From NCBI GenBank assembly GCA_030700155.1, contig JAUYJU010000027.1, forward strand, positions 5,954-69,953: 64,000 nt of DNA. The letters are read 5' to 3'. Of this stretch, positions 21,648 through 50,592 are shown piece by piece. The stretch's first letter is position 1, and every line of letters starts with the position of its first letter. The stretch comes from Candidatus Nanoarchaeia archaeon (GTDB lineage: Archaea; Nanobdellota; Nanobdellia; SCGC-AAA011-G17; JAUYJU01). The notes under the pieces are model-generated. The model was given only the letters and a program-made list of their open reading frames with translations, searched no databases and was not told the DNA's origin. Position numbers and translations under genes: made by a program.

Positions 21648-21680
21648 GTTTTTAAATCCTAAACTAGACTTCCAAACTAT

Positions 21681-21755
21681 GGGCCGGTAATTCAACCTGG
21701 CTAGAATGCTCGGCTGGCAGTCGAGATGCTCCGCGTTCAAATCGCGGCCGGTCCA
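21681..21755 (+). tRNA. tRNA-Ala (anticodon GGC)
   Basis: Manual fold gives an acceptor stem with the G3:U70 alanine identity pair, D-stem ATTC/GAAT, anticodon loop CTGGCAG and TΨC arm CCGCG/TTCAAAT/CGCGG. Confidence 0.85.
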
Positions 21756-21757
21756 TT

Positions 21758-34662: not shown

Positions 34663-34746
34663 GCAGGGGTGCCGGAGTGGTCAAACGGGCTGGGCTTAGG
34701 ACCCAGTAGCTTAGTGCTTACGCAGGTTCGAACCCTGTCCCCCGCA
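34663..34746 (+). tRNA. tRNA-Leu (anticodon UAG), with an A3-C70 mismatch in the acceptor stem
   Basis: Type II tRNA with a long variable arm. Anticodon stem CTGGG/CCCAG with loop CTTAGGA. TΨC arm GCAGG/TTCGAAC/CCTGT. Acceptor GCAGGGG/CCCCCGC has one A-C mispair. Confidence 0.8.
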
Positions 34747-34787
34747 TATTTTACTTTTTCTTATGCGTGCACTAAACAATATAAACC

Positions 34788-36059
34788 ATGTTTGGTTGGG
34801 AGCATATTATGGCAGAGGACGATATATACAAGAGCAAGGCACGCTATGAGAAGATAATTAAAAATCTTAGCTTATTAGCAGTAAAACCAGAAAACGGCTC
34901 TAGAAGAAAATATTATTGCAAGAACATTAATAATTTAGAATGTTTTAAACAAATGTGCAAGATATTTGAAGTTAAAGATACTTCATACATAAGAAGAATC
35001 AGATTATTTAAGAGCTTAATATTTATCGTAGATTCTACAGAAAAAGACCTTAAAAAATGTGAAAGAGAAGATGTCAACGAAATTGTAGCTCGAGGTCATA
35101 AGACATATAACACTCCAAAAACCAAAGAAGATATAATTAGGGATCTTAAGTACATGTGGAAATGTCTATTTCCAGAAAAAGATGAAAAAGGCAGAGTCGA
35201 TGAAACAATTGTGCCTTATACAGTCAGACATTTATCACCTAAGGTTGATAAGAGCAAACAAAAAAGACGCAAGGATAGATTAAATATTGAGCAGTTGGAG
35301 AAGTTGATGAACTTCTTTAGCAGAAGCCCAATGATGCAGTTTTATATTGCTTTAATTATTGAAAGTCTAGGAAGACCTCAAGAGTTAAGCTATCTTCGTA
35401 TTAGTGATTTAGAAATCCACGACAATACTTATGCTAAAATTTATGTTTCTGAACATGGAAAAGAAGGCACTAAGTTTTTACAATGTATTGATAGCTACCC
35501 TTACTTATTAAAATGGTTTACAGTACATCCATTTAAGGATAATAAAAATGCTTTTTTGTTTATTGCTAGTGGAAGAGAAGATAATCAATTTACTCCTGTA
35601 AATGCAACAAAGCAACTGCAGAAAGCTTGTGAGAGATTGAACTTGCCAAGAGTTACTGCTTACTCTCTTAAGAGAAATGGGGTAACATTTGCTAGATTAA
35701 GAGGAGAAAGTGATGTAGAGATACAGCATAAAGCAGGCTGGACTTCTACAAAGCAGATTAATACTTATGACCAAAGTAATGCAGAAGATGTGCTAAAAAA
35801 TCAATTAGCCAAGCGTGGGTTGATAAAAGATAAAAACTATGATATGTTTACTCCTAAGCAGAAAACTTGTTTATGTGGTGAAAATCTTGGCTTTGCTGAA
35901 AGAATATGCCCTAAATGCAAGAGACTTATTCATCAAGAAGATATTAAAAAACAGATGAATGCTGATAACTTAACAACCCAAGTGTTAAAGAAGATAGGTG
36001 AGCAGAATAAAGAATTAATATTAAAAGCTATGGCTGAATTGGGGGTGAGAAATGTTTGA
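34788..36059 (+). CDS. int: Tyrosine recombinase/integrase
   Basis: The C-terminal catalytic region shows an R...HxxR...Y pattern (AYSLKRNGVTFARLRG...HKAGWTSTKQINTY). Extra C-x2-C...C-x2-C tail. Located adjacent to the tRNA. Confidence 0.8.
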   Translation: MFGWEHIMAEDDIYKSKARYEKIIKNLSLLAVKPENGSRRKYYCKNINNLECFKQMCKIFEVKDTSYIRRIRLFKSLIFIVDSTEKDLKKCEREDVNEIVARGHKTYNTPKTKEDIIRDLKYMWKCLFPEKDEKGRVDETIVPYTVRHLSPKVDKSKQKRRKDRLNIEQLEKLMNFFSRSPMMQFYIALIIESLGRPQELSYLRISDLEIHDNTYAKIYVSEHGKEGTKFLQCIDSYPYLLKWFTVHPFKDNKNAFLFIASGREDNQFTPVNATKQLQKACERLNLPRVTAYSLKRNGVTFARLRGESDVEIQHKAGWTSTKQINTYDQSNAEDVLKNQLAKRGLIKDKNYDMFTPKQKTCLCGENLGFAERICPKCKRLIHQEDIKKQMNADNLTTQVLKKIGEQNKELILKAMAELGVRNV

Positions 36060-36075
36060 TTTTATTCTTTCCTAT

Positions 36076-36342
36076 CTAAATGCTCAACCCCTTCTGCACC
36101 ACATATCTCAAAGCAGAGCTTATAGAAACTTTATAAGAAACAGCTCTATTTTCTAATTGTTTCCATAGTTCGTCTTTACAGAAGACAACCCTTCTTTTTT
36201 GAATAGAATTAGGCATAATGTCCTCTTCAGCTAACTTGAAGGTTTTAAGATTGTTATCTTTCTTTGATTCTTCTAATAATCTTCTAAAGAACTGAATAGA
36301 TTGAGGCTCAAATACATGTTCCTTATTTTCTTTTGTTTCCAT
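36076..36342 (-). CDS. Hypothetical small protein
   Basis: 88-aa ORF inside the element. Confidence 0.25.
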   Translation of the reverse strand: METKENKEHVFEPQSIQFFRRLLEESKKDNNLKTFKLAEEDIMPNSIQKRRVVFCKDELWKQLENRAVSYKVSISSALRYVVQKGLSI

Positions 36343-36545
36343 GTTGTTCTATCTCGATTTACCCATTTTAAACCCTGACTTTAATATTAATATATTATTA
36401 ATTTATTAACGTTAACAAATGTCCTCTATGTCCAGTATGCCACTTAGGTTACAAGGATATAGGTCAAGCTTTATATAATTTAGGCGACGTGCACGTGCAC
36501 CTAAGCTTAAAAATACAATAAACTAGATTCTTTTCATGTTTTAAA

Positions 36546-37352
36546 ATGTCAAACAACGACACATTTCCAGCCATAGTATTTTGTTTTGTTATTCTGATTA
36601 CCTTTAATGAATTTCTAAATCCAATTTTACAGGATTTTCTTGCTGTGGACTGGAAGCGAATAGGCATTATCTTTGGTGCTGTTGTTGGAATTTTGATTTT
36701 AGCCTTTTTTACAATAAGAAATATTATTTTGAAGAAAAAAGTAAAAGAAGGCTATATTCCTTACAGTAATCCAGAACCAGAAGAGAATGAAGAACGTCTG
36801 ATTGAAGAGGTTGAAGAACCTGAAGAGCGAGTTATTGAGCAACCTGTTCATAGGGTAGTTAATATTCGAGTAGATGAAACTAAAGGCTTCTTTAAGAAAT
36901 CTGAAATAACTGATGATGAAGTTACATACCTAAAGAATAAAGGATATATAGAAAGCACTCATATGAGCATAGTTACTAAATCTATGGAAAGATATTTGCT
37001 AAAACCAGCTTCTAACGAAAGCCCTAGTCACTTTTTCTTAATACAAGACATTTGTAATTATATTAAGAAATTCACAGACAAAGTCTGGACGTATAATACT
37101 GTTAAGCCTGATATTGTTTTCATTGATAAACGTGGAAGAAAGGTTGCTATTGAAGTTGAAACAGGAAAAGTATTGAAATATAAACCAGAAAGATTACCTC
37201 AAAAAGTTAAACACATGACTGAGAATTATGATGACTGGTTTTTTGTGGTTACAGATGGCAATTTGGTAAGAGAATACAAGAATTATGGTAAAACCTATGA
37301 AAAAAGAAGTATAACTAAAATTCTAAGCAATCTTGTAAGTGGCACAAATTGA
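36546..37352 (+). CDS. Membrane-anchored protein with a PD-(D/E)xK nuclease-like C-terminal domain
   Basis: Two N-terminal transmembrane segments. The C-terminus (VKPDIVFIDKRGRKVAIEVETGK) resembles a restriction-endonuclease-fold core (D...E-x-K). Confidence 0.4.
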   Translation: MSNNDTFPAIVFCFVILITFNEFLNPILQDFLAVDWKRIGIIFGAVVGILILAFFTIRNIILKKKVKEGYIPYSNPEPEENEERLIEEVEEPEERVIEQPVHRVVNIRVDETKGFFKKSEITDDEVTYLKNKGYIESTHMSIVTKSMERYLLKPASNESPSHFFLIQDICNYIKKFTDKVWTYNTVKPDIVFIDKRGRKVAIEVETGKVLKYKPERLPQKVKHMTENYDDWFFVVTDGNLVREYKNYGKTYEKRSITKILSNLVSGTN

Positions 37353-37501
37353 GCTAGAAGCCATACTTACAAGGAATTCTGGCACTACAGCGCTTTTAGT
37401 CAGTAGACATAATAAGGCTATCAGCCAAGTCATTGTGGAAAACGTCTAGTGATAAGGAATTTTGATGTTTTAACTGTTTTAAGAGGCTGGTTAAACTAAG
37501 T

Positions 37502-38581
37502 TTATGTAGTTTTTAATGGTCGGTGTAAGTTAACAATTCTAGCAATAACCTCTTTTCGCAGCCGATATGTATTCGCCCATATAGCGTAACCAAACCAACC
37601 TTGCAGACCTTCTAAAATATTATCTTTAACTAGGACTCCTTCTTTCAAGAGTATTAACTTCTCATTAAAATCTCTTTCGAACCTTCTTTTATTATTTTTT
37701 CTCAACAACCTATAATAATAAAAGTTTTTATAGCCCAAGAATGTTACACCGTTCTTTAAAGGGATTATCTTAGATTTATCTGAATGTAGTTTCAGTTTTA
37801 AACTATTCATGAGATAATAATCTATTTTTTGCTTGTAGCTTTCAAGAACATCTTTCTGTTGGTGCATTATTACAAAATCATCAACATATCTTATATAATA
37901 TCTTGCTCTGATTTCCTGCTTAACAAAGTAATCCAATTCATTAAGATAAATATTAGCAAAGAATTGAGAAGTTAAATTTCCAAGAGGCATCCCTTTGCCA
38001 GCTATCTTTATATCAAAATTGTTTAATATCTGCTTAATTAACCATATAACTCTCTCATCTTTTATTCTTCTCTCTAAAACGTTTAATAAAACCTCATGAT
38101 CTACAGTTTCAAAATAATGTCTTATATCTGCCTTTAAGATATATCCTTTAACTGAATTGTTATCCTTAGCGTTTTTAACCAGCCTGCCGTTATTTGAAAC
38201 TTTTCTTTTGAATTTATCAAATCTTAAAATTGCATTGTGAGTTCCTTTGTTAATTCTGCTCGCATAAGAATCATGAATAAATCTCTTTTCAAATATTGGG
38301 CTAATAATATTAACTAAAGCATGATAGACAACTCGGTCTCTGAATGAAGATGCATGAATTGTTCTTGTTTTTGGGTCTCTGACAATAAACCTCTTTAATT
38401 GCTGCGGTTTATACGTTTGATATTCTAACTCTTGTTTTAATTTATTTAACTCGTTTAATAGATTAGCTTCAAATTCTTTGACATATGGTCTCTTTGATTT
38501 TCTCTTTTTAGCCTTTTTGAAAGCCAATTCTAAATTTTTAAAAGAGTATAGCTCGCCGTATAAGTTATTGTAAGTTTTCAT
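37502..38581 (-). CDS. Reverse transcriptase of a diversity-generating retroelement (DGR)
   Basis: RT motifs 1 to 7 are present, with YVDDFVIM (the YxDD box). The DGR-diagnostic motif MPLGNLTSQFFANIYLNELD (I/LGxxxSQ) replaces the QGxxxSP motif of group II introns. The likely true start is MKTYNN at 38581. The 49 codons the ORF track places upstream are the template repeat read through. Confidence 0.85.
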   Translation of the reverse strand: MKTYNNLYGELYSFKNLELAFKKAKKRKSKRPYVKEFEANLLNELNKLKQELEYQTYKPQQLKRFIVRDPKTRTIHASSFRDRVVYHALVNIISPIFEKRFIHDSYASRINKGTHNAILRFDKFKRKVSNNGRLVKNAKDNNSVKGYILKADIRHYFETVDHEVLLNVLERRIKDERVIWLIKQILNNFDIKIAGKGMPLGNLTSQFFANIYLNELDYFVKQEIRARYYIRYVDDFVIMHQQKDVLESYKQKIDYYLMNSLKLKLHSDKSKIIPLKNGVTFLGYKNFYYYRLLRKNNKRRFERDFNEKLILLKEGVLVKDNILEGLQGWFGYAIWANTYRLRKEVIARIVNLHRPLKTT

Positions 38582-38609
38582 TTTGTGATGTCCTATAACT
38601 TGGGTTATT

Positions 38610-38710
38610 CCGAGCTCCGGATTCTCGTCTTTTTTAGATTTCGAATTCTGCGGATTCCTGTTGCAATTGAGGTTAGCCCTATCGGAATTCGCATTGAACC
38701 TCGCGACAGC
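38610..38710 (-). repeat. DGR template repeat (TR), directly upstream of the RT
   Basis: A segment of about 100 bp is homologous to the 3' ends of the two target genes. Every alignable difference lies at a T on the plus strand, which is an A on the minus (coding) strand. Confidence 0.75.
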
Positions 38711-38956
38711 TTTTAGCAGGTTCATCAAGTTTCACCATAACTTCAGGTTTCACTCCAGCTTCCCCAAGACCATCATTGCTACTAACTGTTGTTATTGTAT
38801 TTTATGGCGTTTAGACTTAAATCGTCCACGCACTATGAACCTGCGTGTAGCCCAAGTCGTCGTTTTTCATTGATTTTCCTTTTGGTTATTAAGGAAAACT
38901 CCATACGACATCTAGGACGAAATAAAAAAGATTGATTAGATTAATAAATTTACTGT

Positions 38957-39748
38957 TTAAATTTTTGCGCGCGCCTGACGTACCCCGAGCTCCGGACCCG
39001 AACTCCGCGGATCCCAGTAGCAATCGAGGAAAGCCCTACCGGAACCCGCAACGAACCCCGCGACGCTTCCATCTCTTGGATACCAATAATATAAGTCACC
39101 TTGCTTAATATCTCTTGGAGGCAAACCTTGGATAGTTGCCCTTTCTAACCAATCATCTAAATTTATTCCTGGAGTTCTATCTTCCATTAAACATTCTTCC
39201 AATGGCTCGGAATATTTCGGTTGCGACTGTCCGTTGACAAACATATGACCATAATCAACAACTAATTCACTTCTTCTCAAAAGACCTTTGGATTGTTTTC
39301 TGAACTTTGCATCAAGCCATTCTGCCCTATAGGGGCTTCTAACTGTTAAAATTTCGTCAACAATCTTAGCCAACTTAGCACGATCTACTCTATTACCGCT
39401 AGCGTCAAAAGGTTTTCCAGTAGTTATTAAATTCAAGAAATCAACATATTGTCTTATTGTAAGCATAAAGTTTCCTTCATTATGCAAAATTTCCTGTGTT
39501 TTATGCCAATTATTATTGTGATGAACTACATTAGCAGAAACTAACAAATCAGGATAAGAATAACTGCCATAGGTTTTTCCTTCTAGAATTATATATTCTT
39601 TTTTATTTGATATGTTTGAAGCAGGGATTATTGCTGGAATTATTTTACTTTCTGGCTGAGTTTCAACTTTGGGAACTTTAGATTCTTCCAAGTACTTCTT
39701 CAATTCTGCTTCTCTGTCCTTTCCGAAAATATTATCTGGTATTTTCAT
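38957..39748 (-). CDS. DGR target protein 2 (lectin-like or FGE-sulfatase-fold C-terminal domain carrying VR2)
   Basis: 263 aa. It shares its N-terminal 24 aa and its C-terminal ...LGVRQARAKI with target 1. The C-terminal region is encoded by VR2. Confidence 0.75.
   Translation of the reverse strand: MKIPDNIFGKDREAELKKYLEESKVPKVETQPESKIIPAIIPASNISNKKEYIILEGKTYGSYSYPDLLVSANVVHHNNNWHKTQEILHNEGNFMLTIRQYVDFLNLITTGKPFDASGNRVDRAKLAKIVDEILTVRSPYRAEWLDAKFRKQSKGLLRRSELVVDYGHMFVNGQSQPKYSEPLEECLMEDRTPGINLDDWLERATIQGLPPRDIKQGDLYYWYPRDGSVAGFVAGSGRAFLDCYWDPRSSGPELGVRQARAKI
38985..39066 (-). repeat. DGR variable repeat 2 (VR2), carrying an in-frame 18-nt deletion relative to the template repeat
   Basis: Matches the template repeat except at template-A positions. 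It is flanked on the 3' side by a GC-rich palindromic element (GGCGCGCGC) that is conserved in VR1 but absent from the template repeat, a candidate initiation-of-mutagenic-homing site. Confidence 0.75.
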
Positions 39749-41469
39749 TGCTTTGTAAACCTCTTGTAGGTATTTGTAGCTGTATTAACCATCAATTTTG
39801 AAAGTTCTTCTCCTGAACTTACGTAAAACACAGGCAGACCCATACCTTCTAAATCTTGGGTAAATCTATTTGAACCGCCAATTTGAATATGTGCAAAATA
39901 GTTTTCTTTAGCTAATTTTTCAAATTCGGACTTAGCTGAACTCCAGTTTTCTATTTCTCCGTCTGAAATAGATAAAACAAAACTCTCTCTGCCTTGCAAA
40001 GCATCAACTAATGTCCTTGCATCCAATTTTGTACCTCCCCAATCTGGAGATAAAGCTAATTTTCTTAATTGATGTATATTTTTAAAATCTGATTCTTCAT
40101 ATCTTGTGCTTGAAGAAAATAAAGCAAGTCCGTGTCCAATATACTGAGCTATTCCCTGCGCTTGTAAAAACTGTTCAATTCCATAAAAACCAAGTAAAGC
40201 ATAGTGATACTTACTATTGTCGCCCCAAGGAATAAAAGTTTGGTCTCCCTGATGCCCATTAATTCCTTCTTTCATAGTTCCTGAATTATCCAAAACAACC
40301 ATCTTAAAATCTGGGAAAGACTTTCTTTGGAATTTTGCTTTTTGAGCTATTGTTAAAGGTGTTCTTTGGTGTCCAAATGTAACTCCTTCATCATTAGCAT
40401 ATAATTTAGATTTTATTTTTCTTACGTCATCAGTTTCAGGATCAAAAGCTCTGAAATTTAATGGTGCTATTGCTAAACTTTGTTCTCTAGTCATTGCTTC
40501 AACTTCCACAGGTATTGATCTTGCTAATCTTTTATATAACAAATCTAGCTGTTCGTGTGATTCAAAATTTGGAGATAAACCATCCCCAGATTTATAACGC
40601 CCATAAGTAATTTCTTCCTTGCCTTCTTTTGCTGAAGCTTTTTCTTCCAATCCATTTCCTTCCTGTTCCTTTTCACCATTTTGATAGGCTGAAAGTCTTT
40701 CTGTTGGAGGTATTTCCAGCAAAGGTGCTAATGCAGCTGCAAATTGTGAAGCCATTTCAGGCCATTCTGATTTATTGAAAAGTTTAACTGTATCTACTTT
40801 ATCTAATGATAATTCCTTTACTACTTTATTTACAGCTTCTTCAACTTTTACAGCTTGTTCAATTTCTTTGGTATTATGTCTTTTTAATAAAGCTTTATCT
40901 GAATTATCTCCCCATAAATGCATATTTAATTTAACAAACGCTTCATAAAAAGGAGTGTAACCTTTTTGCCCTGCTCTTTTACATTGAAAACCTTCGTCGT
41001 CCCAGAATAAAACTTGTCCTGAGAAATTTCCAGTATATTCTTTACATCTTGTATTGTTAATCAAATCTTCAAAAGCATTTGCAACATAACCAGCCTGCCC
41101 TTGTTTATCTTCTGGCAGTGCTTCTTTGACTGCTTCTAAAATTAAATCATGATTATAAACATCATAAGGGCATCCAAAACCTGAATGGAAAGGCAGCTCC
41201 CAATGTCCTAATTCGTGATGCAGAATATCAGTTAATAATTGTTTTTTGCCGTCTTCAATCTTCTTTTTTCTTGCGTAAGCTTTTTGTCTTCTGTCAGTTA
41301 TTGGATTAAATCCTCTATTAATATTTAATTCAATGCTCCAGTTTCTTGGATCAATATGTGCTGAAACGTTTTTATCTGTATCATCATACTCATTTAATTT
41401 CAACGTTCCGCTAACTAGACCTATACTGTTCTTTATCCTATTTAATTCTTGAATTAAAGTCATTTTCAA
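39745..41469 (-). CDS. Protein with an HExxH motif (metallopeptidase-like) and a C-terminal von Willebrand factor A domain
   Basis: HHELGHWELP motif. The vWA domain has a MIDAS motif, VVLDNSGTM. 574 aa. It overlaps both target genes by 4 nt. Confidence 0.6.
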   Translation of the reverse strand: MKMTLIQELNRIKNSIGLVSGTLKLNEYDDTDKNVSAHIDPRNWSIELNINRGFNPITDRRQKAYARKKKIEDGKKQLLTDILHHELGHWELPFHSGFGCPYDVYNHDLILEAVKEALPEDKQGQAGYVANAFEDLINNTRCKEYTGNFSGQVLFWDDEGFQCKRAGQKGYTPFYEAFVKLNMHLWGDNSDKALLKRHNTKEIEQAVKVEEAVNKVVKELSLDKVDTVKLFNKSEWPEMASQFAAALAPLLEIPPTERLSAYQNGEKEQEGNGLEEKASAKEGKEEITYGRYKSGDGLSPNFESHEQLDLLYKRLARSIPVEVEAMTREQSLAIAPLNFRAFDPETDDVRKIKSKLYANDEGVTFGHQRTPLTIAQKAKFQRKSFPDFKMVVLDNSGTMKEGINGHQGDQTFIPWGDNSKYHYALLGFYGIEQFLQAQGIAQYIGHGLALFSSSTRYEESDFKNIHQLRKLALSPDWGGTKLDARTLVDALQGRESFVLSISDGEIENWSSAKSEFEKLAKENYFAHIQIGGSNRFTQDLEGMGLPVFYVSSGEELSKLMVNTATNTYKRFTKQ

Positions 41470-42158
41470 ATTTTTGCGCGCGCCTGACGTACCCCGAGCA
41501 CCGGACCCCCGTCCCTAGATCCCGAATACCGCGGACCCCTGTCGCAATCGAGGCCAGCCCCACCGGAACCCGCATAGAACCCCGCGACAGCTCCATCTCT
41601 TGGATACCAATAATCAAAATCGCTGCCTTTTGTTGTTGGGAAGCCTTGCTTGTTGAAACTTCCTAAATCAACTTTACAATCTTCCATCAAACAAGCTTCT
41701 AAAGGTTCTTTATTTTGAGGTGCTAATTTACCATTAATTATTCTATGATTATAACTAATCTGATCTGCATTTTTTAAAGTTTTGAAAGATGCATCAAGCC
41801 ACTCTGCTCTCCACGGATCTCTTACTTCTGTTATTTCTTTGTATAATCTTTTGAAATCAGCATTTCCATTTTTTAATATTGCTAAGAAGTCAGCAAATTC
41901 TCTCAAATTAAGCATTCTTGCACCTTCTGAATTTAATGATTCATGTGCTTTGTACCAATCTTCATTAAAATGAGTTCTTTGTTTAGATACGTAGAGATTA
42001 TGATTAGGCAGATAAATATAATCTCCTTTATCAAAACCTTCTAGATTTATTTGTGGTTTAGGTTGTTCTTTAACTTCAGGCTGTCTTTTAGATTCTTCCA
42101 AGTACTTCTTTAACTCTGCTTCTCTGTCCTTTCCGAAAATATTATCTGGTATTTTCAT
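41466..42158 (-). CDS. DGR target protein 1 (paralog of target 2; the C-terminus carries VR1)
   Basis: 230 aa with the same N-terminal MKIPDNIFGKDREAELKKYLEESK and the same C-terminal tail as target 2. Confidence 0.75.
   Translation of the reverse strand: MKIPDNIFGKDREAELKKYLEESKRQPEVKEQPKPQINLEGFDKGDYIYLPNHNLYVSKQRTHFNEDWYKAHESLNSEGARMLNLREFADFLAILKNGNADFKRLYKEITEVRDPWRAEWLDASFKTLKNADQISYNHRIINGKLAPQNKEPLEACLMEDCKVDLGSFNKQGFPTTKGSDFDYWYPRDGAVAGFYAGSGGAGLDCDRGPRYSGSRDGGPVLGVRQARAKI
41494..41592 (-). repeat. DGR variable repeat 1 (VR1)
   Basis: Roughly 100 bp aligned to the template repeat with substitutions only at template-A positions, plus a 3-nt length change inside an A-homopolymer tract. 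Confidence 0.75.
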
Positions 42159-43347
42159 CAGCTACCCTCTCGAATAAATTTTTCATGAAAGACCATCTTC
42201 CTGTAAACTCTCCAGCTAACTTCTCGCTTTTCTTGCCTTTAGCAGCTAATGCAAAAGCTGCAGCAATTTTACCTTTTCTATCATCGCTGAACTCTGTTTG
42301 AGTAGTTGTAATTACAGCGTCCATTGCTTTGTAATGATCTTCTCCATAAGTTTGTCTTACTAAAGCCTCGTTTAATATTCCTGAATAAGCTGAAATAAAT
42401 TTAAATGCTTGCATCATTGATTCAAAGTTATCAGGTGCTTCAGCGCCTTTTTCCTGAACAATCTGATCCAAAGCTTGGCTTAAAGATATAACAGCTTTTG
42501 CAGCTCTTGGTGAAACTGGCAGTATCAAAGCAGCATCTGAACCTTTTTCATGATTTTCCACAGCATTAGGCCATGCAGATTTCATTCCTATCTTGCTTTT
42601 ACCGCCGTCTAAATAATCAAGGCCGTGAATTAAATATGAAGCTATTAACAACTTATTAAATGGTACTTCAGTTTCATTTAATTTTTTGTAAGCTTCTTTT
42701 ATTTCTTCAGTCTTATCTACAGTTTCAGAACCAAAATTAACTCTAGGGTTCCTATCACCAGCAAGCATTTCAAGAGTGTCAATAGGCTGAGGTCTAAAAT
42801 AATCAGTATCTAGAACTAAATGCATTCTATCCTTTAAAGCCCTTCCTAAATCATTTGAAGACTCAGTAAATTGCTGCCCTATATTTCCTGTAGCAATACC
42901 AACTGAATATCCAGAACCAAGAGGATAAGCCTTTCCATCTATTTCTATAAATCCATCAAATAAGTTAAACAACTGAGCACGAACAGCAGGTACACAGTTA
43001 GGCAGTTCATCAACAACAGTTAAATTATAATCGATTTTATCTGTTAATTCTTTAAACTTTACAGCTCCATCTCCTTGTCCTTTCAATGCTTTCAAAAACT
43101 CAGGATTAACTTGCTGGAATAATTCTCTTGTATCCATATCATTTCTTCCTAAAATAAATAAAGACTTATCTCCAAAATAATGAACTACATCTCTTGCTAA
43201 TTGAGTTTTACCAGAACCAGTATCACCCTGTAAGAATACGTTTAATCTTCCTCTTAGAGCAGCTTCTACCATATCATGCATGTAAATTGGAACTCCATTC
43301 AGTGTAGTCAATTCAGTACTATTTCTGTAATTCTTCGGTTTGAACAT
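42142..43347 (-). CDS. MoxR-like AAA+ ATPase
   Basis: Walker A VFLQGDTGSGKT and a Walker B/sensor region VVDELPNCVPAVRAQLFNLFDG resembling the MoxR DEINRA segment. 401 aa. Overlaps target 1 by 17 nt. Confidence 0.65.
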   Translation of the reverse strand: MFKPKNYRNSTELTTLNGVPIYMHDMVEAALRGRLNVFLQGDTGSGKTQLARDVVHYFGDKSLFILGRNDMDTRELFQQVNPEFLKALKGQGDGAVKFKELTDKIDYNLTVVDELPNCVPAVRAQLFNLFDGFIEIDGKAYPLGSGYSVGIATGNIGQQFTESSNDLGRALKDRMHLVLDTDYFRPQPIDTLEMLAGDRNPRVNFGSETVDKTEEIKEAYKKLNETEVPFNKLLIASYLIHGLDYLDGGKSKIGMKSAWPNAVENHEKGSDAALILPVSPRAAKAVISLSQALDQIVQEKGAEAPDNFESMMQAFKFISAYSGILNEALVRQTYGEDHYKAMDAVITTTQTEFSDDRKGKIAAAFALAAKGKKSEKLAGEFTGRWSFMKNLFERVADENTR

Positions 43348-43489
43348 TTTGATCCTCCTTAATAACGCTTATTTTTACTTCTACTATTGTTTTTGGTTTA
43401 AGCTCGTCTTTTAAGAAGCTGGGAATAACTATTACAGCTTGATTTCCGTGCTTTGCTATTTTCTTTGTTATTGTGTATATTTTTGACAT
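43319..43489 (-). CDS. Small AbrB/MazE-like (swapped-hairpin) DNA-binding protein
   Basis: Not in the ORF track. The 56-aa translation MSKIYTITKKIAKHGNQAVIVIPSFLKDELKPKTIVEVKI... resembles the AbrB/SpoVT fold. It overlaps the ATPase start. Confidence 0.35.
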   Translation of the reverse strand: MSKIYTITKKIAKHGNQAVIVIPSFLKDELKPKTIVEVKISVIKEDQNVQTEELQK

Positions 43490-43608
43490 TTTTATGTATA
43501 GATTATATGTATTTTACTACTTTAAAGTGGTATATAAAGCTTTCTATAGAACTAGCTTTGCACAAGTAAAATCAAAAAGTTTATAAATATGTAACTATTA
43601 GACATTAA

Positions 43609-43896
43609 TTGATAAACATGACACAAGTCTTAGAGCAACAAAGAGTAGCACATAGCCCAACACTAGCTACAATCCAGATGGTAGAAGAAACTATTCATGG
43701 AGCAAAAGAAGTCCTGAATATTGCAGAAATCAAACGTAGACTTCCCAAAAAAGTTAACCATAATACCCTAAAAGTAATACTTAGATATTTGCAAGAAATA
43801 GGCAAAATAGAATTTACTCCAGATGGAGTTATTTGGATTTTCGTGCCAAAAGAAGACGTAGCAGCCATACTAAGTAAAGGCCGAACATGGATTTAA
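43609..43896 (+). CDS. Putative antitoxin, partner of the downstream RelE/ParE-like toxin
   Basis: 95-aa ORF overlapping the toxin gene by 10 nt, the typical antitoxin-then-toxin order. Confidence 0.4.
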   Translation: MINMTQVLEQQRVAHSPTLATIQMVEETIHGAKEVLNIAEIKRRLPKKVNHNTLKVILRYLQEIGKIEFTPDGVIWIFVPKEDVAAILSKGRTWI

Positions 43897-44261
43897 AAGA
43901 CAAACAAAAAATTGTACAGGTTATTGGAACTGCAGAAACAGCACTAACAAAATTAGAAGAAAACATTCATGCACTAGAAGCTCAAGGCAAAACGCCACCA
44001 AAATCAGATGCACAATTGTTAAGAAGTATTGAACGTGCTTTAAAAACACTTGAAGTAAATCCCTTTGTAGGAGATAATGTTGCAGGCAGATTATGGCCAA
44101 AAGAATTTCAAAATCTTCCAAATTTATTTCGACTCGAACTCTCGCAATTTTGGAGATTACTTTATTATGTTATAGGCGATGAAGTAAAAGTAATTAGTGT
44201 TGTCTTCGAAATTTGTGATCATGATTACTACAACAAACTATTTGGTTATAAAAATAAATAG
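43887..44261 (+). CDS. RelE/ParE-family toxin
   Basis: The C-terminal region FWRLLYYVIGDEVKVISVVFEICDHDYY resembles the RelE/ParE core. 124 aa. Confidence 0.5.
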   Translation: MDLKDKQKIVQVIGTAETALTKLEENIHALEAQGKTPPKSDAQLLRSIERALKTLEVNPFVGDNVAGRLWPKEFQNLPNLFRLELSQFWRLLYYVIGDEVKVISVVFEICDHDYYNKLFGYKNK

Positions 44262-44363
44262 TGCACATTCACGTGCCACCTTACCAAAAGTTATTTATAG
44301 AAGCTATGCTACAAATATATGGGTTCGCATAAGAAATCTCTCGCGAGGCATGTCCCCTGCATA

Positions 44364-45164
44364 TTAATGCCTTTCTAAATAAACCACTAAAAACAATTTA
44401 TACCAAATCAAAGCACTTACAAGAATTAACAAGGCAACAGTCCAAGGTAAAACATTCATTAAACTAAAAGTACCTATAATCTTATTAGTATAAATATTAA
44501 AGAAAATAAATATAGTCGTCATAAGCAAAATAAACATGGGTATGAATAAAGGAACTAAAAATTTAGCTTTTCTAACTGAAATATTAAAAGCCCTCTTTAA
44601 AGTATTTTTTAGAGTATCATTTCTAATTGTAAATCCATAAAATACAAACAGATAATAAAATATTAAAAATGAAAATACTAAGTAACCTAAAAAAGGCATT
44701 AATTTTATTTCAAATACACTTGTAATTGAAGAAATTGTATAATAACCAACCATAAATAGTAAACCTAAAGCAATAAAACTAACAATAAAAAATCTAGTAA
44801 AATATAATTTTAAATTATTTAATTTATTAGTTAATAAAGACCAGCTAAATCCTTGAAAAACGCTCCATAAAACAATAGTCATTATTGGAATAGCCCAAAA
44901 TAATATTAAAGTTTGATTATTCAATGCTCCAATCTGATCTAAAGTTTGTTGTAATTGAGGCAAAGCTTCAGGAGACTGCTCTAATAAAGCGCCCAACTGT
45001 TGTAAAGCTGGAGATAAAGTACCTAACTTCAACATATTAGAATGGATTTTCATTCTAGCTAAAACTAAAAAAGCCAAATAAACAACTGCAAAAAGTATAT
45101 TAATCATAAATAGATTAAGAAATTTCGCTTTGAACAATTTATTTACTTTATGAAGATTACTCAT
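44364..45164 (-). CDS. Polytopic membrane protein (last gene of the giant-protein operon)
   Basis: 266 aa with at least six transmembrane helices. Its start overlaps the stop of the 1811-aa gene. Confidence 0.4.
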   Translation of the reverse strand: MSNLHKVNKLFKAKFLNLFMINILFAVVYLAFLVLARMKIHSNMLKLGTLSPALQQLGALLEQSPEALPQLQQTLDQIGALNNQTLILFWAIPIMTIVLWSVFQGFSWSLLTNKLNNLKLYFTRFFIVSFIALGLLFMVGYYTISSITSVFEIKLMPFLGYLVFSFLIFYYLFVFYGFTIRNDTLKNTLKRAFNISVRKAKFLVPLFIPMFILLMTTIFIFFNIYTNKIIGTFSLMNVLPWTVALLILVSALIWYKLFLVVYLERH

Positions 45165-48100
45165 TTTTTTCCCAAGCTACAAATTCCTTTATTAAATCAA
45201 AATATTCTTTCTCAAGATTTTTAATTATCTCAGGAGATAACTCGTTTATAAAATTATTCCCACGTCCAGGGGTAATTACTTGACTTGAAAGTTTACCATT
45301 TAAATTACTATTAAAGAACCACTTCCTATTATCCAAAGTAACTTCTAGATTAATCGAATTGCTAGGTTCATAATAGTTAACAGTAAAACTTCTGCCGCGT
45401 ATTTCAGTCTCTTCCAAGGAGTATTTAAAAATTCCAGAACCACTATGAGTTTCTGTTTTAAGTGTATCTGAATCAGCTTTTACAATTTCAATTAAATCTT
45501 CAAAAATAGCTACTTTATTTTGAATTATTATTTCATCTTCTGTAATATCATATGAATAGGATGAATCAAATTCTCCAACATCAAAAAGTAGTTCCATAAA
45601 ACCATTTAAATCTTGAACATCAGCTAAGCTAAACAACCTATTAGTTTTCGGAATCTTCAACCCAGCCAAAGGACCAGCTTTATCACCATACCTTATATTT
45701 CTTTTAGAAGCTTCTCCAACTGCTTTTAACAAATTAGACATTTTATTATTCGCATCAGAACTTTGTTTTAGATAAATTCCAACCACTTCCTCAACTAATT
45801 CAGTTTGTATTTCCGCTTCTTGTTCCTCTTCATACTGTTTCTTAAATGCTAAGAAATCTTTTTCTCCAAGATATGTTTTTGCTCTGTCTTCCACTTCAGC
45901 ATCCGGAAGATATGTCGGATCCATTACTTCTTTAGCATCTTCTTCTGTCTCTCCATACTCAGTCATTAATTTAGTGAATATAAGTTGTCTCAATGCAGTT
46001 AAATAAGCTGATTCTACTTTTGCAGTTGGAGTAGGAAGACTTGTGAGTGCAACTCCCCACCTATTATAAGTATTTCCTATTTCAAACTGAGCAACCATTA
46101 CAATATCTAAACTTAAGGATTTATCCATAACTACTTTTAAATTTTCCAGGGCAAGACTAAATTTAGATTGAGTAGTAAGCTCTTTAGCTTGTTTTATTTT
46201 GTCTATAGCAGTTTTATCATCTAAGGCATACTCACTAATAGATTTGTTCAGTCCTTCTAATTCAACTTTCTTTTGTGTTTCATATAATCCTTTATCTAAC
46301 TGTTCTCTTGAATATTCCTGTTGTAAAGCTTGTCTAGCACTTGGCTTATACAACCAGCAAGTTCCTAAATCTCTTCCATCATCATCAGTTCCACAGTTTC
46401 CAACAATTTCCCAATTAGCAGAATCAGTACCTACTCCAGGATTATCTCTTGCGCAAGTTCTTACAATACCTAACTGACCAGCACTTGGTATTCCAGGTAA
46501 AGTGCTAGCTGCAACACCTAAAGCACCAGTAGCTTGATATTCTCCTTTTATACTTCCATAATTTTCAGGAACACATTCTTTCTCTGTTCTGATTTGTTTG
46601 GCAGCTTGATTCTTAACATATTGCTCACTCAAATAATTCATTCCAAAATCAGTTGTAACTTTTCCTGGCCCACAATTTTGTTGTGTTCCATAAAGTTTAG
46701 TAGTTGTGATTATACAAATCTCTGTAAATCCTTCGGGCATTACTCTTTCTAAATTTTCACTGGAATATTCTCCAGCTTTGATTTGTCTATTCGAAACAAT
46801 TGTTATTGGATTAATCAATGGTTTTCCAGGAGCGGGTGTTCCTCTCATAAATAGGCTATAAGTTGTATCTTCATTTTCTCCTGCATAAACATGATAAAAT
46901 ATAGTATACAATGATTGCGGGAATTTATCAACATCTGAATAAGGAACCGCATCAAAGAACGCAGTAAACTGAGGAGGACTTTCAGGTCTTGATACACTGT
47001 TTAATAAATCTCCAACGCTAGGCGATTTTCCAAATATTGCTGCTTTACAAATTTCAGCACCAACTTCTCCAAATCCAGCACCAGCATAACCTGCAAACAC
47101 ATTCTTAGCATAACTCTCAGTAAAGTAACCAACAGCACCTACTGAACTATCTACAGCAGTTGAGAATGCACTATACTCTCCCCCACCAGAACTTGCTCCA
47201 GATACTTTATCTATTAATAATCCTAAAACTCCTTCTTTGGTTCCTAATAATGCTACTCCTTCTCTCCATAATATTTCACATAAGTAATAAGATCTTAATC
47301 TATCACAAATTCCAACTGATCTATCATTCAATTGAGATTCTTTCAAACATTGATTGTAACCTTGTAATATTGATTTTATGTTCTGCAATCCAGCAAGTAT
47401 TCCAGTTAAACAAACCGGCATAACTACATCTCCACCAAACACAACCCAGTTAGGCGCACACAATACTGCTGAACCAACTATTCCAGTTTCAACTACATTA
47501 TCAACCTGCCACTTTCCTCCTAAATTACATCTTGTTGGAGGACAAATTACAGGATCACAAGCATTAAACAATAATTTACAATCTTCAGCACTCATATACT
47601 CAACACAACTTGGTCCTTTAGCTATAGGCGCTGATTTAGCTACAGCATATCTTCCTAACGAACAACCAATATTTGCAGTAGTTGGAATTGCATATCCTGA
47701 TTCAACTTTTTGTCTGCTTAATTGATTATTCATTCCAGCTATGCAATTAGGTAACTGAGATAAACTTTTCTTTAAATTTTGATCATCTGTAGTAGCCTGA
47801 ACAGTATTAATATCACCAACTCTAGCATCTCCAGGACCACCCATTGGAGCATTTGCATAAGGCCTCTCATAAACATAACTTTCTTTAGAATCAATTCTTC
47901 CACCGGTGGTATACTTAACATCAGCATAGTGTCTTGAATCAAGACTTATCTTATCTAAACTACCATCATTCTTTCCCTCAGTAATTACTGTAATCTGACC
48001 TTTATGTTCCTCTTCAGCTTTAGTCTTCTTGCCATCAGCAGTTTGAAGAGCCGGATTTTTAGCTTCTACATATCCCTTTACATAATCAGCATATGCAGTA

Positions 48101-50592
48101 TCATCAGCCACGTTAACTGCACTTAAAGCCTTCTTATACTCTTCTTTATAAAAATAAGAAGCATAATTCGCTTGTAATTGTTTTTGTCTTGCAGTAGCTA
48201 TAATTTCTCTTCTATTACTCTGATCCTTCCAAGTATTCTCTAAATTTCCCTCACCAGCACTAAATCCAATCAAAAGTTTTTCCTGTTCTGTTAACTCACT
48301 CCACTGTTTCGTTTGCATAGATGAAAGCTGGCCATCAACTTTTACTTCTTGGGCCCTCATATCATTCGCTAAATGATTTTTAACAACTACTTCATCAGCA
48401 GGTTTAGCTTTTGCATTTTCAAAACTATAATAATAATCTTTGGCAAAGGCTTCATCAGTTTTAGCAAGTTCTGCAGCTACAGCATTATTTTTATAATTAC
48501 CTTTATTAATATCTTCAACTATTTTCTTAGTTCGTTCGTAATCTTCATTGTATTCTTTTATATTCTCAGAAACATATTGATCAAAACTTCCTTGATAACC
48601 AGAAGCTCTCTGCTGATTGTATTTCTCTTTCCATTCTGGATTTACTTTATTTCTAGTTATAGCTGCGGTGCTTCCAAACACACCAGAAAGCAAGTTCTTA
48701 GCAAACAAAGTTCCAAAAGTTATCAAACATAAATTAGTCCAAAATTTATGCAATTTTTCCATCTGATTAATGTACTTATCTAAATCGTTTATTATGTCAG
48801 CAGTTTTGTTAATTTCTTTTTCAATAGTACTACTAAACAGGGGAATTCCAACAGCTCTTTTCTCAACAGGAATATGTAATTTAAAATTAGTATCACTTGT
48901 TCCTCTTTTAACTTCAGGGAATACACTTAAATAAGCTATTCTCTTTAAATCTAAACTCTTTAACTGTAAATCAATTTTCTTTCCAGAAATTTCAACTTGT
49001 TTTTGATCAAATCCAACATTAATCCTAGTGTTTCCAGATTGTAACAACACATCTCTTGCTCTTATCTGCATTACTTTATAATTAGTTCCGCCTAAATCGA
49101 AAGTTGCACCAGTTTCAACGTTTTGAGATTTGCCATTGATTAAAATTTCAGCTTTAGGCTTCTTCACATCTTTAGCTCTTACAACATCAACTACACTTAT
49201 AGTGACATATTCAGTACCCAAATCACCTAAAATCTTAGTTTCAGATTTAACTTTATTCAAAGCGTTCAATTTTTCCTGTATCAAATCAGCATCTTTCATG
49301 GAAGCAGCATAATTGCTTACTAAAGTCTGCGCAGCTTCTTTTTGTTTGTTAACAAAACCTAAAGTACCATATATCTCTGCTATTTCTCTTTGAGCTTGAG
49401 CAGCTAAATTTCCACTATAACTGTCTACTTTAATATTCCTATCAGCTTCTCTGACAACTTTTTCATAATTAGCTATGGCATAGGCATAAGCTTCTCTTTG
49501 ATTAGTTGGAGTTGCCTTAAGATTAGATCTGGCTTTATTCAATAAAGTTTCAAATTGAGATTCTTCTGTTGTTTGAGTAGTCTTAACCTGTCCAAATTCA
49601 ATATTAAACTTCTCATTAGCCCCATTTATTGAATTTCTTAGTGTAACAACTGCTTTCTTATCATCAGAAGTTATATCATTAACAACCCAATCAGAATTAT
49701 CATATAATCTATCTCCTTTTATCAATCTGACAATATCAGAACCCCCTGTAACTTTCTGAACTAAGAAAACAACTTCATCTTCTTGTCCTCTAATCTGATT
49801 TAATTTTATTCTAAATCTATCATAAGCTCCACTTAATCCAGCTAGACCTTGAACTCCAGTCAAAGGACCAGAAGTTGAACCTTCACTTAATCTTATAGGT
49901 TCTCTAATTACTCTGCCTTGATTATCATACAAAAATAAAGTAGCACCATTCTCATCAATAATATGCGCTCTTAAAAATCCGCCAGAAAAACTATACTGGT
50001 CTCTTTGAGGTAGCCAATCTTGCTCAGTCAAGGCAGGCATACTCAAATCTTTTCTGCTCATAGTTATAGTTTCAGAAATATCAAAGTCAATCCTAGCTTC
50101 AACATCAATATTGATTACATCAGGAACATCATGCTCTTTAGGTATTTTTGAAATTGGAATTACTAAGTAACCAAAATTCCTATAATCAATAAAACCTTGC
50201 GCAGGAGGTAAATACCTTATTGCTCTAACATTGGGAGCTTTTTTACTCGGAGGATCAACAGAAACATTGACAGATTTAATAGCAACATTTCTTATGGCAG
50301 GGATAGTAATTGTAGGATTTGTAGGAGTTCCAATTAACGAAGCATAAACATAAACATCTTGTTCTTCCAATAAACCAGCACGTAAAACTTTAGGTTGATA
50401 AGAATCAACTTGAACTAAAATATCCTCTCCATAAGTTCCAGGCTCTTTAATACCTAACTTGGTTTCTTGCAACTCTTGCCCAAATTGTTGTAAGGTCTGT
50501 TCACCTTGAGTCTGAGCATAAACACTAGCAGAAGATATTGGTATCATAACTACCAAAAACATACAAAATAATGCATTCAATCTTTTTTTCAT
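45157..50592 (-). CDS. Giant secreted or surface protein (1811 aa)
   Basis: N-terminal signal peptide (MKKRLNALFCMFLVVMIPISSASVYAQ), a Cys-rich central region and a long uninterrupted ORF in AT-rich DNA. It overlaps the 683-aa gene by 4 nt. Confidence 0.6.
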   Translation of the reverse strand: MKKRLNALFCMFLVVMIPISSASVYAQTQGEQTLQQFGQELQETKLGIKEPGTYGEDILVQVDSYQPKVLRAGLLEEQDVYVYASLIGTPTNPTITIPAIRNVAIKSVNVSVDPPSKKAPNVRAIRYLPPAQGFIDYRNFGYLVIPISKIPKEHDVPDVINIDVEARIDFDISETITMSRKDLSMPALTEQDWLPQRDQYSFSGGFLRAHIIDENGATLFLYDNQGRVIREPIRLSEGSTSGPLTGVQGLAGLSGAYDRFRIKLNQIRGQEDEVVFLVQKVTGGSDIVRLIKGDRLYDNSDWVVNDITSDDKKAVVTLRNSINGANEKFNIEFGQVKTTQTTEESQFETLLNKARSNLKATPTNQREAYAYAIANYEKVVREADRNIKVDSYSGNLAAQAQREIAEIYGTLGFVNKQKEAAQTLVSNYAASMKDADLIQEKLNALNKVKSETKILGDLGTEYVTISVVDVVRAKDVKKPKAEILINGKSQNVETGATFDLGGTNYKVMQIRARDVLLQSGNTRINVGFDQKQVEISGKKIDLQLKSLDLKRIAYLSVFPEVKRGTSDTNFKLHIPVEKRAVGIPLFSSTIEKEINKTADIINDLDKYINQMEKLHKFWTNLCLITFGTLFAKNLLSGVFGSTAAITRNKVNPEWKEKYNQQRASGYQGSFDQYVSENIKEYNEDYERTKKIVEDINKGNYKNNAVAAELAKTDEAFAKDYYYSFENAKAKPADEVVVKNHLANDMRAQEVKVDGQLSSMQTKQWSELTEQEKLLIGFSAGEGNLENTWKDQSNRREIIATARQKQLQANYASYFYKEEYKKALSAVNVADDTAYADYVKGYVEAKNPALQTADGKKTKAEEEHKGQITVITEGKNDGSLDKISLDSRHYADVKYTTGGRIDSKESYVYERPYANAPMGGPGDARVGDINTVQATTDDQNLKKSLSQLPNCIAGMNNQLSRQKVESGYAIPTTANIGCSLGRYAVAKSAPIAKGPSCVEYMSAEDCKLLFNACDPVICPPTRCNLGGKWQVDNVVETGIVGSAVLCAPNWVVFGGDVVMPVCLTGILAGLQNIKSILQGYNQCLKESQLNDRSVGICDRLRSYYLCEILWREGVALLGTKEGVLGLLIDKVSGASSGGGEYSAFSTAVDSSVGAVGYFTESYAKNVFAGYAGAGFGEVGAEICKAAIFGKSPSVGDLLNSVSRPESPPQFTAFFDAVPYSDVDKFPQSLYTIFYHVYAGENEDTTYSLFMRGTPAPGKPLINPITIVSNRQIKAGEYSSENLERVMPEGFTEICIITTTKLYGTQQNCGPGKVTTDFGMNYLSEQYVKNQAAKQIRTEKECVPENYGSIKGEYQATGALGVAASTLPGIPSAGQLGIVRTCARDNPGVGTDSANWEIVGNCGTDDDGRDLGTCWLYKPSARQALQQEYSREQLDKGLYETQKKVELEGLNKSISEYALDDKTAIDKIKQAKELTTQSKFSLALENLKVVMDKSLSLDIVMVAQFEIGNTYNRWGVALTSLPTPTAKVESAYLTALRQLIFTKLMTEYGETEEDAKEVMDPTYLPDAEVEDRAKTYLGEKDFLAFKKQYEEEQEAEIQTELVEEVVGIYLKQSSDANNKMSNLLKAVGEASKRNIRYGDKAGPLAGLKIPKTNRLFSLADVQDLNGFMELLFDVGEFDSSYSYDITEDEIIIQNKVAIFEDLIEIVKADSDTLKTETHSGSGIFKYSLEETEIRGRSFTVNYYEPSNSINLEVTLDNRKWFFNSNLNGKLSSQVITPGRGNNFINELSPEIIKNLEKEYFDLIKEFVAWEKNE

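Follow-up and report, generated by a model that had tools for sequence, protein, structure and literature searches.

In the 64-kb window analysed here (the whole stretch of 64,000 nucleotides from the Candidatus Nanoarchaeia contig JAUYJU010000027.1, an AT-rich sequence with a GC content of about 32%), a tRNA-Leu(UAG) gene (34663..34746, + strand; predicted by ARAGORN and scored 52 bits by the Rfam tRNA model) is followed by a tyrosine integrase gene, two further genes, a diversity-generating retroelement (DGR) with its reverse transcriptase (RT), template repeat (TR) and two target genes, and a gene pair resembling a toxin-antitoxin module, up to position 44365. The genes on both sides of this region are those of archaeal information processing (TFIIB, S8e, L37e, S13/S15, Sm/LSM, SRP54 and diphthamide synthesis), and the integrase is 100% identical to an NCBI protein from a 'Candidatus Nanoarchaeia archaeon' metagenome-assembled genome (MAG; locus tag Q8R00_03145, on a contig of 233,749 bp), and therefore the host is a DPANN archaeon. 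We propose that the segment from 34736/34747 to 44365 is very probably a 9.6-kb cryptic integrative element (genomic island), inserted at tRNA-Leu of the chromosome and carrying a complete DGR as its cargo. The initial annotation, made from the sequence alone, had placed such an element at 34663 to 44365 (about 9.7 kb); the right end stands, but the left end has to be moved, the element starting inside the 3' end of the tRNA.

The boundaries of the island are two copies of a 15-bp sequence, TGTCCCC[C/T]GCATATT, representing the attachment (att) cores. The left copy, attL (TGTCCCCCGCATATT; 34736..34750, + strand), consists of the last 11 nt of the tRNA gene plus 4 nt, and the right copy, attR (TGTCCCCTGCATATT; 44351..44365, + strand), abuts the stop codon of a chromosomal gene for a 266-aa protein (44364-45164, - strand). 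The two copies are identical at 14 of 15 positions, in agreement with the near-repeat reported in the initial annotation, and are the sole such match pair in the 64 kb. The annotation had added that its proposal would fail if the match were no better than chance in such AT-rich DNA, and the outcome depends on the query: the score was reached by 2.6% of Markov shuffles when the 3' part of the tRNA was compared with the 29 kb downstream, and by 29% once the AT-rich downstream bases were joined to the query. Since the repeat is unconvincing when taken alone, it is the comparative evidence that establishes attL and attR.

The single mismatch between the two copies has a polarity. In the present tRNA gene, the 5' strand of the acceptor stem, GCAGGGG, pairs with the 3' strand CCCCCGC except at A34665·C34743 (an A3·C70 mismatch), whereas the attR copy, CCCCTGC, and the tRNA of the relative L013 described below carry T in place of the attL-specific C, which gives a perfect stem with a Watson-Crick A3-U70 pair. 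This polarity is what integration is expected to leave, element DNA having taken the place of the tRNA end and the original end having moved to the far side of the element, and on this ground we infer that strand exchange is to be placed left of the mismatch, within the 7-bp TGTCCCC. In the proposed mechanism, the element integrase would recombine attP (TGTCCCCCGCATATT) with attB, composed of the last 11 nt of tRNA-Leu(UAG) plus 4 nt; after exchange within TGTCCCC the rebuilt tRNA would receive the C of the element, and the displaced copy at the far end would keep the T. The predicted junctions are tRNA ...CCCTGTCCCCTGCATATTAATGCCTTTC for attB and ...GAGGCATGTCCCCCGCATATTTTACTTTT for attP.

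A locus corresponding to the site before integration was identified in a related archaeon, on the JGI contig Ga0256668_1018316 (L013). The order of genes on this contig is big-protein, 267-aa, tRNA-Leu, an extra LAGLIDADG-like open reading frame (ORF; recognized by eye), L37e, LSM, S8e, orf87 and TFIIB, colinear with the window on either flank; the intervening 9.6 kb, including the DGR and the toxin pair, is missing. The 267-aa protein is 64% identical to the 266-aa membrane protein abutting attR, and the set of flanking proteins (1811-aa-like, 267-aa, L37e, LSM, S8e, orf87 and TFIIB) shows 52-99% amino acid identity in the main alignments. The tRNA-Leu(UAG) gene, which we read base by base, has in its anticodon stem a non-canonical intron of about 35 nt, and was missed by ARAGORN and Rfam because of this intron (tRNA and LAGLIDADG-like ORF: L013:3300-4160, - strand). 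The 3' end of this tRNA gene and the end of the 267-aa gene meet directly (TGTCCCCTGCATACTTAATGCCTTTC, where the window attR reads TGTCCCCTGCATATTAATGCCTTTC); base by base, the tRNA ends with ...GGTTCGATCCCTGTCCCCTGCA and runs straight into TACTTAATGCCTTTCTAAATAG of the 267-aa gene end, the corresponding attR sequence being ATGTCCCCTGCATATTAATGCCTTTCTAAATAA. L013 has an unoccupied target site, precise to the att core, and the empty tRNA-Leu site that the initial annotation had suggested seeking in related genomes was indeed found. The comparison of sequences confirms the 15-bp repeat as the attL/attR pair, with the attR copy, homologous to the tRNA/267-aa-gene junction of L013, as the displaced original 3' end of tRNA-Leu; the earlier suggestion that the repeat at 44351..44365 is the other attachment site is confirmed by the empty site, by the mismatch polarity, and by the islands of the integrase family and the contig breaks described below, the statistics of the repeat alone being weak.

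The same chromosomal tRNA-Leu site is a hot spot that is used repeatedly, as shown by four other loci. In L047 and L077, LSM-L37e is followed by an integrase 51-55% identical to that of the window, with TFIIB and S8e adjacent in L047 and an S8e homologue located about 5 kb further upstream in L077. In L012 (Nanoarchaeia MAG GCA_040961615.1; L012:10819-13863), a 39-aa N-terminal remnant of the integrase lies beside tRNA-Leu(CAG); genes for an AAA_14/DUF4143 ATPase and a HEPN/nucleotidyltransferase pair come next, ahead of the 272-aa gene, the whole representing a decayed island; the same MAG also holds, on a different contig, the island with the 72% identical integrase (L002). In L011, an 81% relative, the att remnant CCCCCTGCATAT is followed by different DNA. 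Within L011:1413-1470, a 17-nt stretch after this remnant, ATTTTTCTAACTTAAGC, resembles the element side of attL and leads without a gap into the end of the 267-aa gene; it may be the scar of an earlier element.

The integrase gene lies beside the tRNA, as described in the initial annotation, which gave it 423 aa and a start 40 bp after tRNA-Leu(UAG). This corresponds to the longest ORF (34788-36059, starting 41 nt after the tRNA), but alignment of 25 homologues and the NCBI gene model place the start at 34809, 62 nt past the tRNA, so that the product is a protein of 416 aa (MAEDDIY...; 34809..36059, + strand) with a C-terminal CxC...CxxC zinc ribbon. It matches Pfam Phage_integrase PF00589 with 28.0 bits against a cut-off of 27.1 (E 2.2e-6) and the PHROG integrase profile at E 6e-15. 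The residues R189, K218, Y285-S-L-K288-R289, W311 and Y320 and the four C-terminal cysteines are invariant in the 25 aligned integrases, and the family profile matches the catalytic domain of XerA 5hxy (E 2.8e-6) with the catalytic residues aligned. By these alignments, the catalytic residues are intact and the protein is a tyrosine recombinase. The gene is full length downstream of attL with the att site outside, which is not the arrangement of SSV-type (suicidal) integration; as in the pNOB8 type, the gene is intact after integration, whereas the YxxR box of that type reads Y-S-L-K-R here, with the Arg replaced by Lys or shifted by one position. The leader upstream of the gene (34747..34808, + strand), delineated by comparison of 80 loci and by similarity to L002, contains a TATA-like box, ATATAAAC, about 25-35 nt upstream of the ATG, of which the sequence and spacing are kept across the integrase family, and it probably acts as the promoter. 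A scan for bacterial promoters and terminators was uninformative, the host being archaeal.

The integrase belongs to a large family, with 600 matches at E <= 1e-3 (90% clusters) and 135 representatives at E <= 1e-30 (50% clusters). For comparison in metagenomes we used 80 loci with flanks of at most 10 kb per side, which truncates the range of island sizes that can be seen. Among the four homologues examined first (54-72% identity), three (P0002, P0014 and P0020) sit 66 nt 3' of same-strand tRNAs detected by Rfam, and the fourth (P0007, in L003; 57% identity) follows a tRNA-like 3' end that was read by eye and is undetected by ARAGORN and Rfam. With introns allowed, ARAGORN predicted a tRNA upstream of the integrase ATG in at least 30 of the 80 loci, mostly ending about 60-90 nt before the ATG, and the tRNAs include those for Gly, Leu, Glu, Gln, Ser and Val; in most of the remaining loci the acceptor end ...GCA lies at -62 to -66, frequently with an intron in the T-loop. 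The ...GCA end in the family loci is followed by a conserved AATGCG box and then by the TATA-like box. These ARAGORN counts were used in place of an acceptor-stem pairing test for tRNA adjacency, which proved too permissive (36/58 versus 14/58 in the control). In seven of the loci (L062, L063, L065, L066, L070, L072 and L075), two successive ...GCGCA/...CCGCA acceptor-like ends are found about 60-110 nt upstream of the integrase ATG; these doubled ends may be tandem att remnants of serial integrations.

Exact repeats of the tRNA end were found to bound six further islands of the family: 15 bp around 8.2 kb in L002, 11 bp around 9.4 kb in L004, 16 bp around 7.6 kb in L064, 33 bp around 7.9 kb in L097, 12 bp around 10.4 kb in L110 and 17 bp around 8.7 kb in L119. 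The repeat of L002 has the same geometry as that of the window, covering the final 11 nt of the tRNA and the 4 nt after it (-10..+4 around the tRNA end), and that of L004 is just the last 11 nt of the tRNA; within the 10 kb available, such repeats were not found in L008, L047, L077, L111 and L112. In the seven delimited islands the integrase is the sole common gene (43-72% identity) and the cargo is unrelated; Prim-Pol/PriCT genes occur in some members of the family (L008/L042 and L110), and in others Fic/DOC together with a PDDEXK_1 nuclease (L097) or a surface protein with Laminin_G_3 (L002). In IMG/VR, neither the single integrase protein nor the profile found a relative, and the collections of phages and plasmids gave matches at about 25% identity only, to integrases of archaeal viruses and haloarchaeal plasmids.

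Two genes downstream of the integrase are shared with the island of L002, which leads us to group the three as a core module (identities between the window and L002: integrase 72%, 88-aa protein 74%, 268-aa protein 71%); together they would constitute a conserved integration module. The 88-aa protein (36076..36342, - strand), which occupies the same position in L002, has by eye an RHH-like C-terminus and may be a regulator or serve in excision; in L004 the integrase gene is followed by an RHH_5 gene, and the 88-aa protein itself gave no match to Pfam or other profiles. The 268-aa protein (36546..37352, + strand) has two N-terminal hydrophobic, transmembrane helices and a C-terminal PD-(D/E)xK-fold domain, and its AlphaFold2 (AF2) model, built from an alignment of 40 homologues, reached a pLDDT (predicted local distance difference test) of 86.8. 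PD-(D/E)xK nucleases make up nearly all of the top Foldseek matches of this model (best match: E 6e-4, probability 0.98), among them NucS/EndoMS, Card1, YaeQ, XPF/ERCC1, VRR-NUC and restriction enzymes, and on the basis of the modelled fold the protein can be placed in the PD-(D/E)xK nuclease superfamily, in good agreement with the membrane-anchored PD-(D/E)xK-like protein of the initial annotation. Among its invariant residues, E158, H162, D189, E203, E205 and K220, the catalytic role would fall to D189, E203, E205 and K220. Homologues of the 268-aa protein recur near DGR RTs and near integrases of the family (near RTs at L022:4101-4280, L024:2046-2471, L111:15003-15632 and L112:12606-13235; further sites at L047:10414-11025, L076:6637-6855 and L087:7282-7821), and some of them are fused to Pfam PF19044.

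The DGR spans 37502-43489 (- strand), and all the features of such a system were observed: RT, TR, variable repeats (VRs) at the C-termini of two target genes, adenine-specific changes and the associated RNA. The RT (37502..38584, - strand) is a protein of 360 aa starting from MKTYNN, with matches to Pfam RVT_1 (1.4e-20) and the PHROG RT profile (5e-120); a longer 408-aa ORF with a TTG start runs over the TR. The TR of 107 nt (38604..38710, - strand) is preceded directly on its 5' side, with a 3-nt overlap, by the RT-16 RNA motif (Rfam RF03019; 38708..38916, - strand; 91.5 bits where the gathering score is 50, E 3e-13), and this motif probably belongs to the TR transcript. Target protein 1 (263 aa; 38957..39748, - strand) carries VR1 at 38979-39067, and target protein 2 (230 aa; 41466..42158, - strand) carries VR2 at 41488-41591. 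Mismatches fall on TR adenines in 20/22 cases for TR/VR1 and 26/28 for TR/VR2 (46/50 together), and the two non-adenine exceptions in each pair sit at the 3' boundary. The two targets are paralogues with 46% identity, and the first 72 nt of their genes are 97% identical; neither has a signal peptide or a transmembrane segment. As the 90%-identity clusters of both targets are single-member, without VR variants, they are silent on the activity of the DGR.

The remaining genes of the target operon are a 56-aa ORF (43319..43489, - strand), AbrB/MazE-like by eye and a possible regulator, without any family match, of which L021 has a 50% identical homologue some 3 kb away from a related RT; an AAA+ ATPase of 401 aa (42142..43347, - strand; Pfam AAA_5 4e-9, NCBI 'AAA family ATPase'), which is the second gene of the operon; and a 574-aa protein between the two targets (39745..41469, - strand), with HExxH and DxSxT (VWA-like) motifs recognized by eye, a 54% identical homologue in L022 and no match in Pfam, PHROG, NCBIfam or PDB. 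The cargo is arranged in the order AbrB-like ORF, AAA+ ATPase, target 2, 574-aa protein, target 1, RT-16 RNA with TR, and RT. The vWA and FGE profiles gave no match for the 574-, 263- and 230-aa proteins, and PDB sequence searches with the 574-, 263-, 268- and 124-aa proteins yielded nothing useful. PADLOC matched the RT and gave, in addition, faint ATPase matches only; the RT found a single match (32%) in IMG/VR. For the Avd/HRDC-type accessory, no Avd-like match was obtained in Pfam, PHROGs or NCBIfam for any ORF of the island. Accessory proteins of the Avd type are not universal among DGRs. Because the DGR lies wholly inside the att boundaries it is cargo, as the initial annotation had thought probable, and its absence from L013 lends support to this assignment. 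A related RT is found near the integrase in 3 of the 80 loci (2 unique), for which the island ends were not found. The link between DGR and integrase is not general: the DGR is a cargo picked up by this lineage of elements and does not define the family. In L022 the order 574-aa homologue, target, RT and 268-aa homologue is the same as in the window, which suggests that the DGR and the core module have long been linked.

The right end of the island is occupied by two genes overlapping by 10 nt, which may serve to stabilize the island. The first (95 aa; 43609..43896, + strand) is a putative antitoxin with faint winged-helix-type matches, and the second (124 aa; 43887..44261, + strand) is a putative ParE/RelE-like toxin. 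The gene pair described in the initial annotation is thus present, and it is conserved beside a related RT in L017, but the assignment to a RelE/ParE family is weak, since all the matches of the 124-aa protein are below threshold (ParE_toxin 0.0065, with 17.5 bits against a cut-off of 23; ParE_like 0.028; YoeB 0.18; PHROG RelE-like 0.0037) and the 95-aa gene is without a family. A single-sequence AF2 model of the 124-aa protein (pLDDT 55) was unusable and was discarded.

In the assembly of run SRR13727534, two independent Logan contigs break at the two att cores. The contig SRR13727534_94553 (L120; 31-mer L120:1-31) starts at window position 34713, its first 31-mer ending on the attL-specific C at 34743, and the contig SRR13727534_38769 (L001; 31-mer L001:10784-10814) ends at 44351, the first base of the attR core. 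Logan contigs are built from a de Bruijn graph with k=31 (PMC12424806), and an additional attB allele (tRNA...CCCCT-GCATATTAATGCC) would make the graph branch at exactly these two contig ends. This indirect evidence hints that the island is polymorphic (present or absent) in this sample, and the element may still be mobile at present.

Several observations weigh against a mobile island. The 15-bp repeat taken alone is marginally better than chance (p 0.026-0.29 by query), and the relative in which the site is empty is only 64% identical in the flanking protein, no empty site having been seen in the same species. No excision product or circular junction was seen directly, the inference from contig ends is indirect, the assembly of SRR13727534 is in fragments, and the other end of contig _94553 falls within the 268-aa gene without evident reason. 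None of the 25 loci with related RTs (35-66% identity; flanks of at most 10 kb, several contigs being 2-7 kb) has this integrase. The composition of the island is like that of the flanks, its tetranucleotide distance ranking 16th among 37 segments (15 of 36 controls at least as distant) and its GC content being 0.337 against 0.319; the contrast in k-mers or GC which the initial annotation had proposed to look for thus gave no difference, and composition speaks neither for nor against the island. Such a host-like composition fits an element that circulates among close relatives as well as one that has long been resident. Genes for virion, packaging, replication or transfer functions were not detected in the island with Pfam, PHROG, PADLOC and NCBIfam. 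As replication and virion genes are lacking, transfer probably takes place via other elements or by excision and uptake. The element is probably non-autonomous, in a family that also has plasmid-like members. The derivation from a plasmid, which had been offered as one possibility, is suggested by the Prim-Pol genes in some members of the family, but not by the island of the window, which is without Prim-Pol, Rep or MCM.

The other possibility offered at the outset, a provirus, finds no support in structural genes or in IMG/VR relatives of the integrase. On this explanation, the DGR would diversify a receptor-binding protein of the virion, as in the Bordetella phage BPP-1 or the archaeal virus ANMV-1; an integrase beside a tRNA with flanking repeats is what a provirus would show, DGRs are common in viruses (PMC5758913), and the nearest integrases in the phage collections, at about 25% identity, are archaeal-viral. 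We consider it very improbable, however, because the PHROG matches are limited to the integrase, RT, ATPase and a weak RelE-like toxin, with no capsid, portal, terminase or other structural gene found; because neither the protein nor the profile of the integrase has a relative in IMG/VR; because most of the 9.6 kb and 12 genes is accounted for by the DGR operon; and because the targets carry neither signal peptide nor transmembrane segment. Still less probable is a composite or tandem island, in which only the integrase and the 88-aa and 268-aa genes are mobile and the DGR and the toxin pair are chromosomal or arrived separately. The sharing of just these three genes with L002, next to a different cargo, would agree with it, as would the occurrence of related DGRs mostly without this integrase nearby; but the window contains two matches to the att core only, with no extra one between 36 and 44 kb, the empty-site relative L013 is also without the DGR and toxin pair, and the gene order of L022 suggests a long linkage of the DGR with the core module, and an exchange of cargo within the element is compatible with an integrative element that has the DGR as cargo. 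Least probable of all is a fixed, vertically inherited variable region with a neighbouring or domesticated integrase, a chance repeat and a deletion in L013, for although the repeat is statistically weak, the composition equals that of the host and the integrase is unusually conserved across the seven islands with unrelated cargo, the absence in L013 is base-precise at the att core with an intact tRNA carrying the ancestral T, a like repeat geometry bounds islands at six other loci, the contents of the site differ in L011, L012, L047 and L077, and the contigs break at both att cores.

Outside the island, attR faces a cluster of three genes (44364-45164 and 45157-52640, both - strand) encoding the 266-aa protein, with seven hydrophobic segments, and proteins of 1811 and 683 aa. 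The Pfam scan, which covered the 266- and 683-aa proteins, gave no match for either, and the 1811-aa protein found no match in the GTDB genomes, the source genome included. Look-ups of the exact L37e and LSM proteins were likewise without a match. The cluster is kept beside tRNA-Leu in relatives, in full in L012 and in the parts reached by the short contigs of L013 and L011, and it probably encodes a large complex located at the surface or in the envelope of these archaea. A tRNA-Ala(GGC) gene at 21680-21756 of the window was called by ARAGORN and was not reported by the Rfam tRNA model at its gathering threshold.

An integrative element carrying a DGR can be compared with several known systems. 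Islander-type islands integrated at tRNA genes (PMC4383910), the 'cryptic integrated elements' of Thaumarchaeota (PMC6563490) and the archaeal tyrosine recombinases reviewed in 2021 (PMC8371274) have been described; in the full text of the 2021 review the term DPANN has 0 occurrences. As in archaeal tRNA islands, the integrase of the window lies beside its target tRNA, attB is at the tRNA 3' end, the tRNA is regenerated and its displaced fragment is found at the far end; integration does not disrupt the integrase gene (non-suicidal), as in pNOB8, and the att site is short as in SNJ2. Unlike them, the integrase has Y-S-L-K-R instead of a clean YxxR/KxxR, plus the C-terminal zinc ribbon, and the island leaves a mismatch in the acceptor stem, carries a DGR and resides in a DPANN host.

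DGRs of Nanoarchaeota and other DPANN archaea are known (Paul et al. 2015, PMC4372165; Wu et al. 2018, PMC5758913), and horizontal acquisition of their RTs has been suspected from composition (PMC4372165). The window resembles them in its RT, TR, C-terminal VRs with adenine mutagenesis, orphan targets and multiple targets per RT, and differs from those described so far in that the vehicle is identified, as an integrase island with attL/attR and an empty site, and in that no Avd-like gene was recognized; the words integrase, tRNA and island do not occur in the full text of PMC4372165. DGRs are also known on phages (the temperate BPP-1), prophages and plasmids (PMC5758913), and as in these bacterial elements the DGR of the window is cargo of a site-specifically integrating element, although the island is without phage structural or plasmid replication genes and the host is archaeal. 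The operon also resembles, and we claim resemblance only, the MoxR-vWA ternary conflict systems with DGR-diversified FGS domains of cyanobacteria and proteobacteria (Kaur et al. 2020, PMC7159879), in which likewise an AAA+ ATPase (AAA_5 in the window) and a large partner are encoded with DGR targets; in contrast to those systems, no vWA domain is detected by profile in the window (DxSxT by eye only), and the targets are separate small proteins and not vWA fusions. We found no description of an integrase-delimited DGR island in DPANN archaea or of this integrase family in a literature search that did not cover the 2017 Nat Microbiol survey by Paul et al.

The principle of a tRNA-integrating island with cargo is textbook knowledge, but the present case is unusually well documented and is delimited to the base. 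We tentatively propose, short of holding it probable, that the island belongs to a DPANN-wide class of small elements (about 8-10 kb, n=7 delimited) at tRNA 3' ends, which share the zinc-ribbon integrase and act as general shuttles of cargo among ultra-small archaea; here a whole hypervariation system would be moving, still polymorphic in the sampled population. For the abundant DGRs of DPANN archaea, composition and phylogeny have so far been the only grounds for inferring horizontal spread; a concrete vehicle is now delimited, which offers a testable route for DGR transfer between ultra-small archaea, and an integrase/att pair with a 15-bp core is defined from an uncultivated lineage and can be tested in vitro. 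An operon for hypervariable proteins can be accessory, strain-variable DNA and not part of the core symbiont genome, and this bears on the reading of DGR targets as factors of host attachment or defence.

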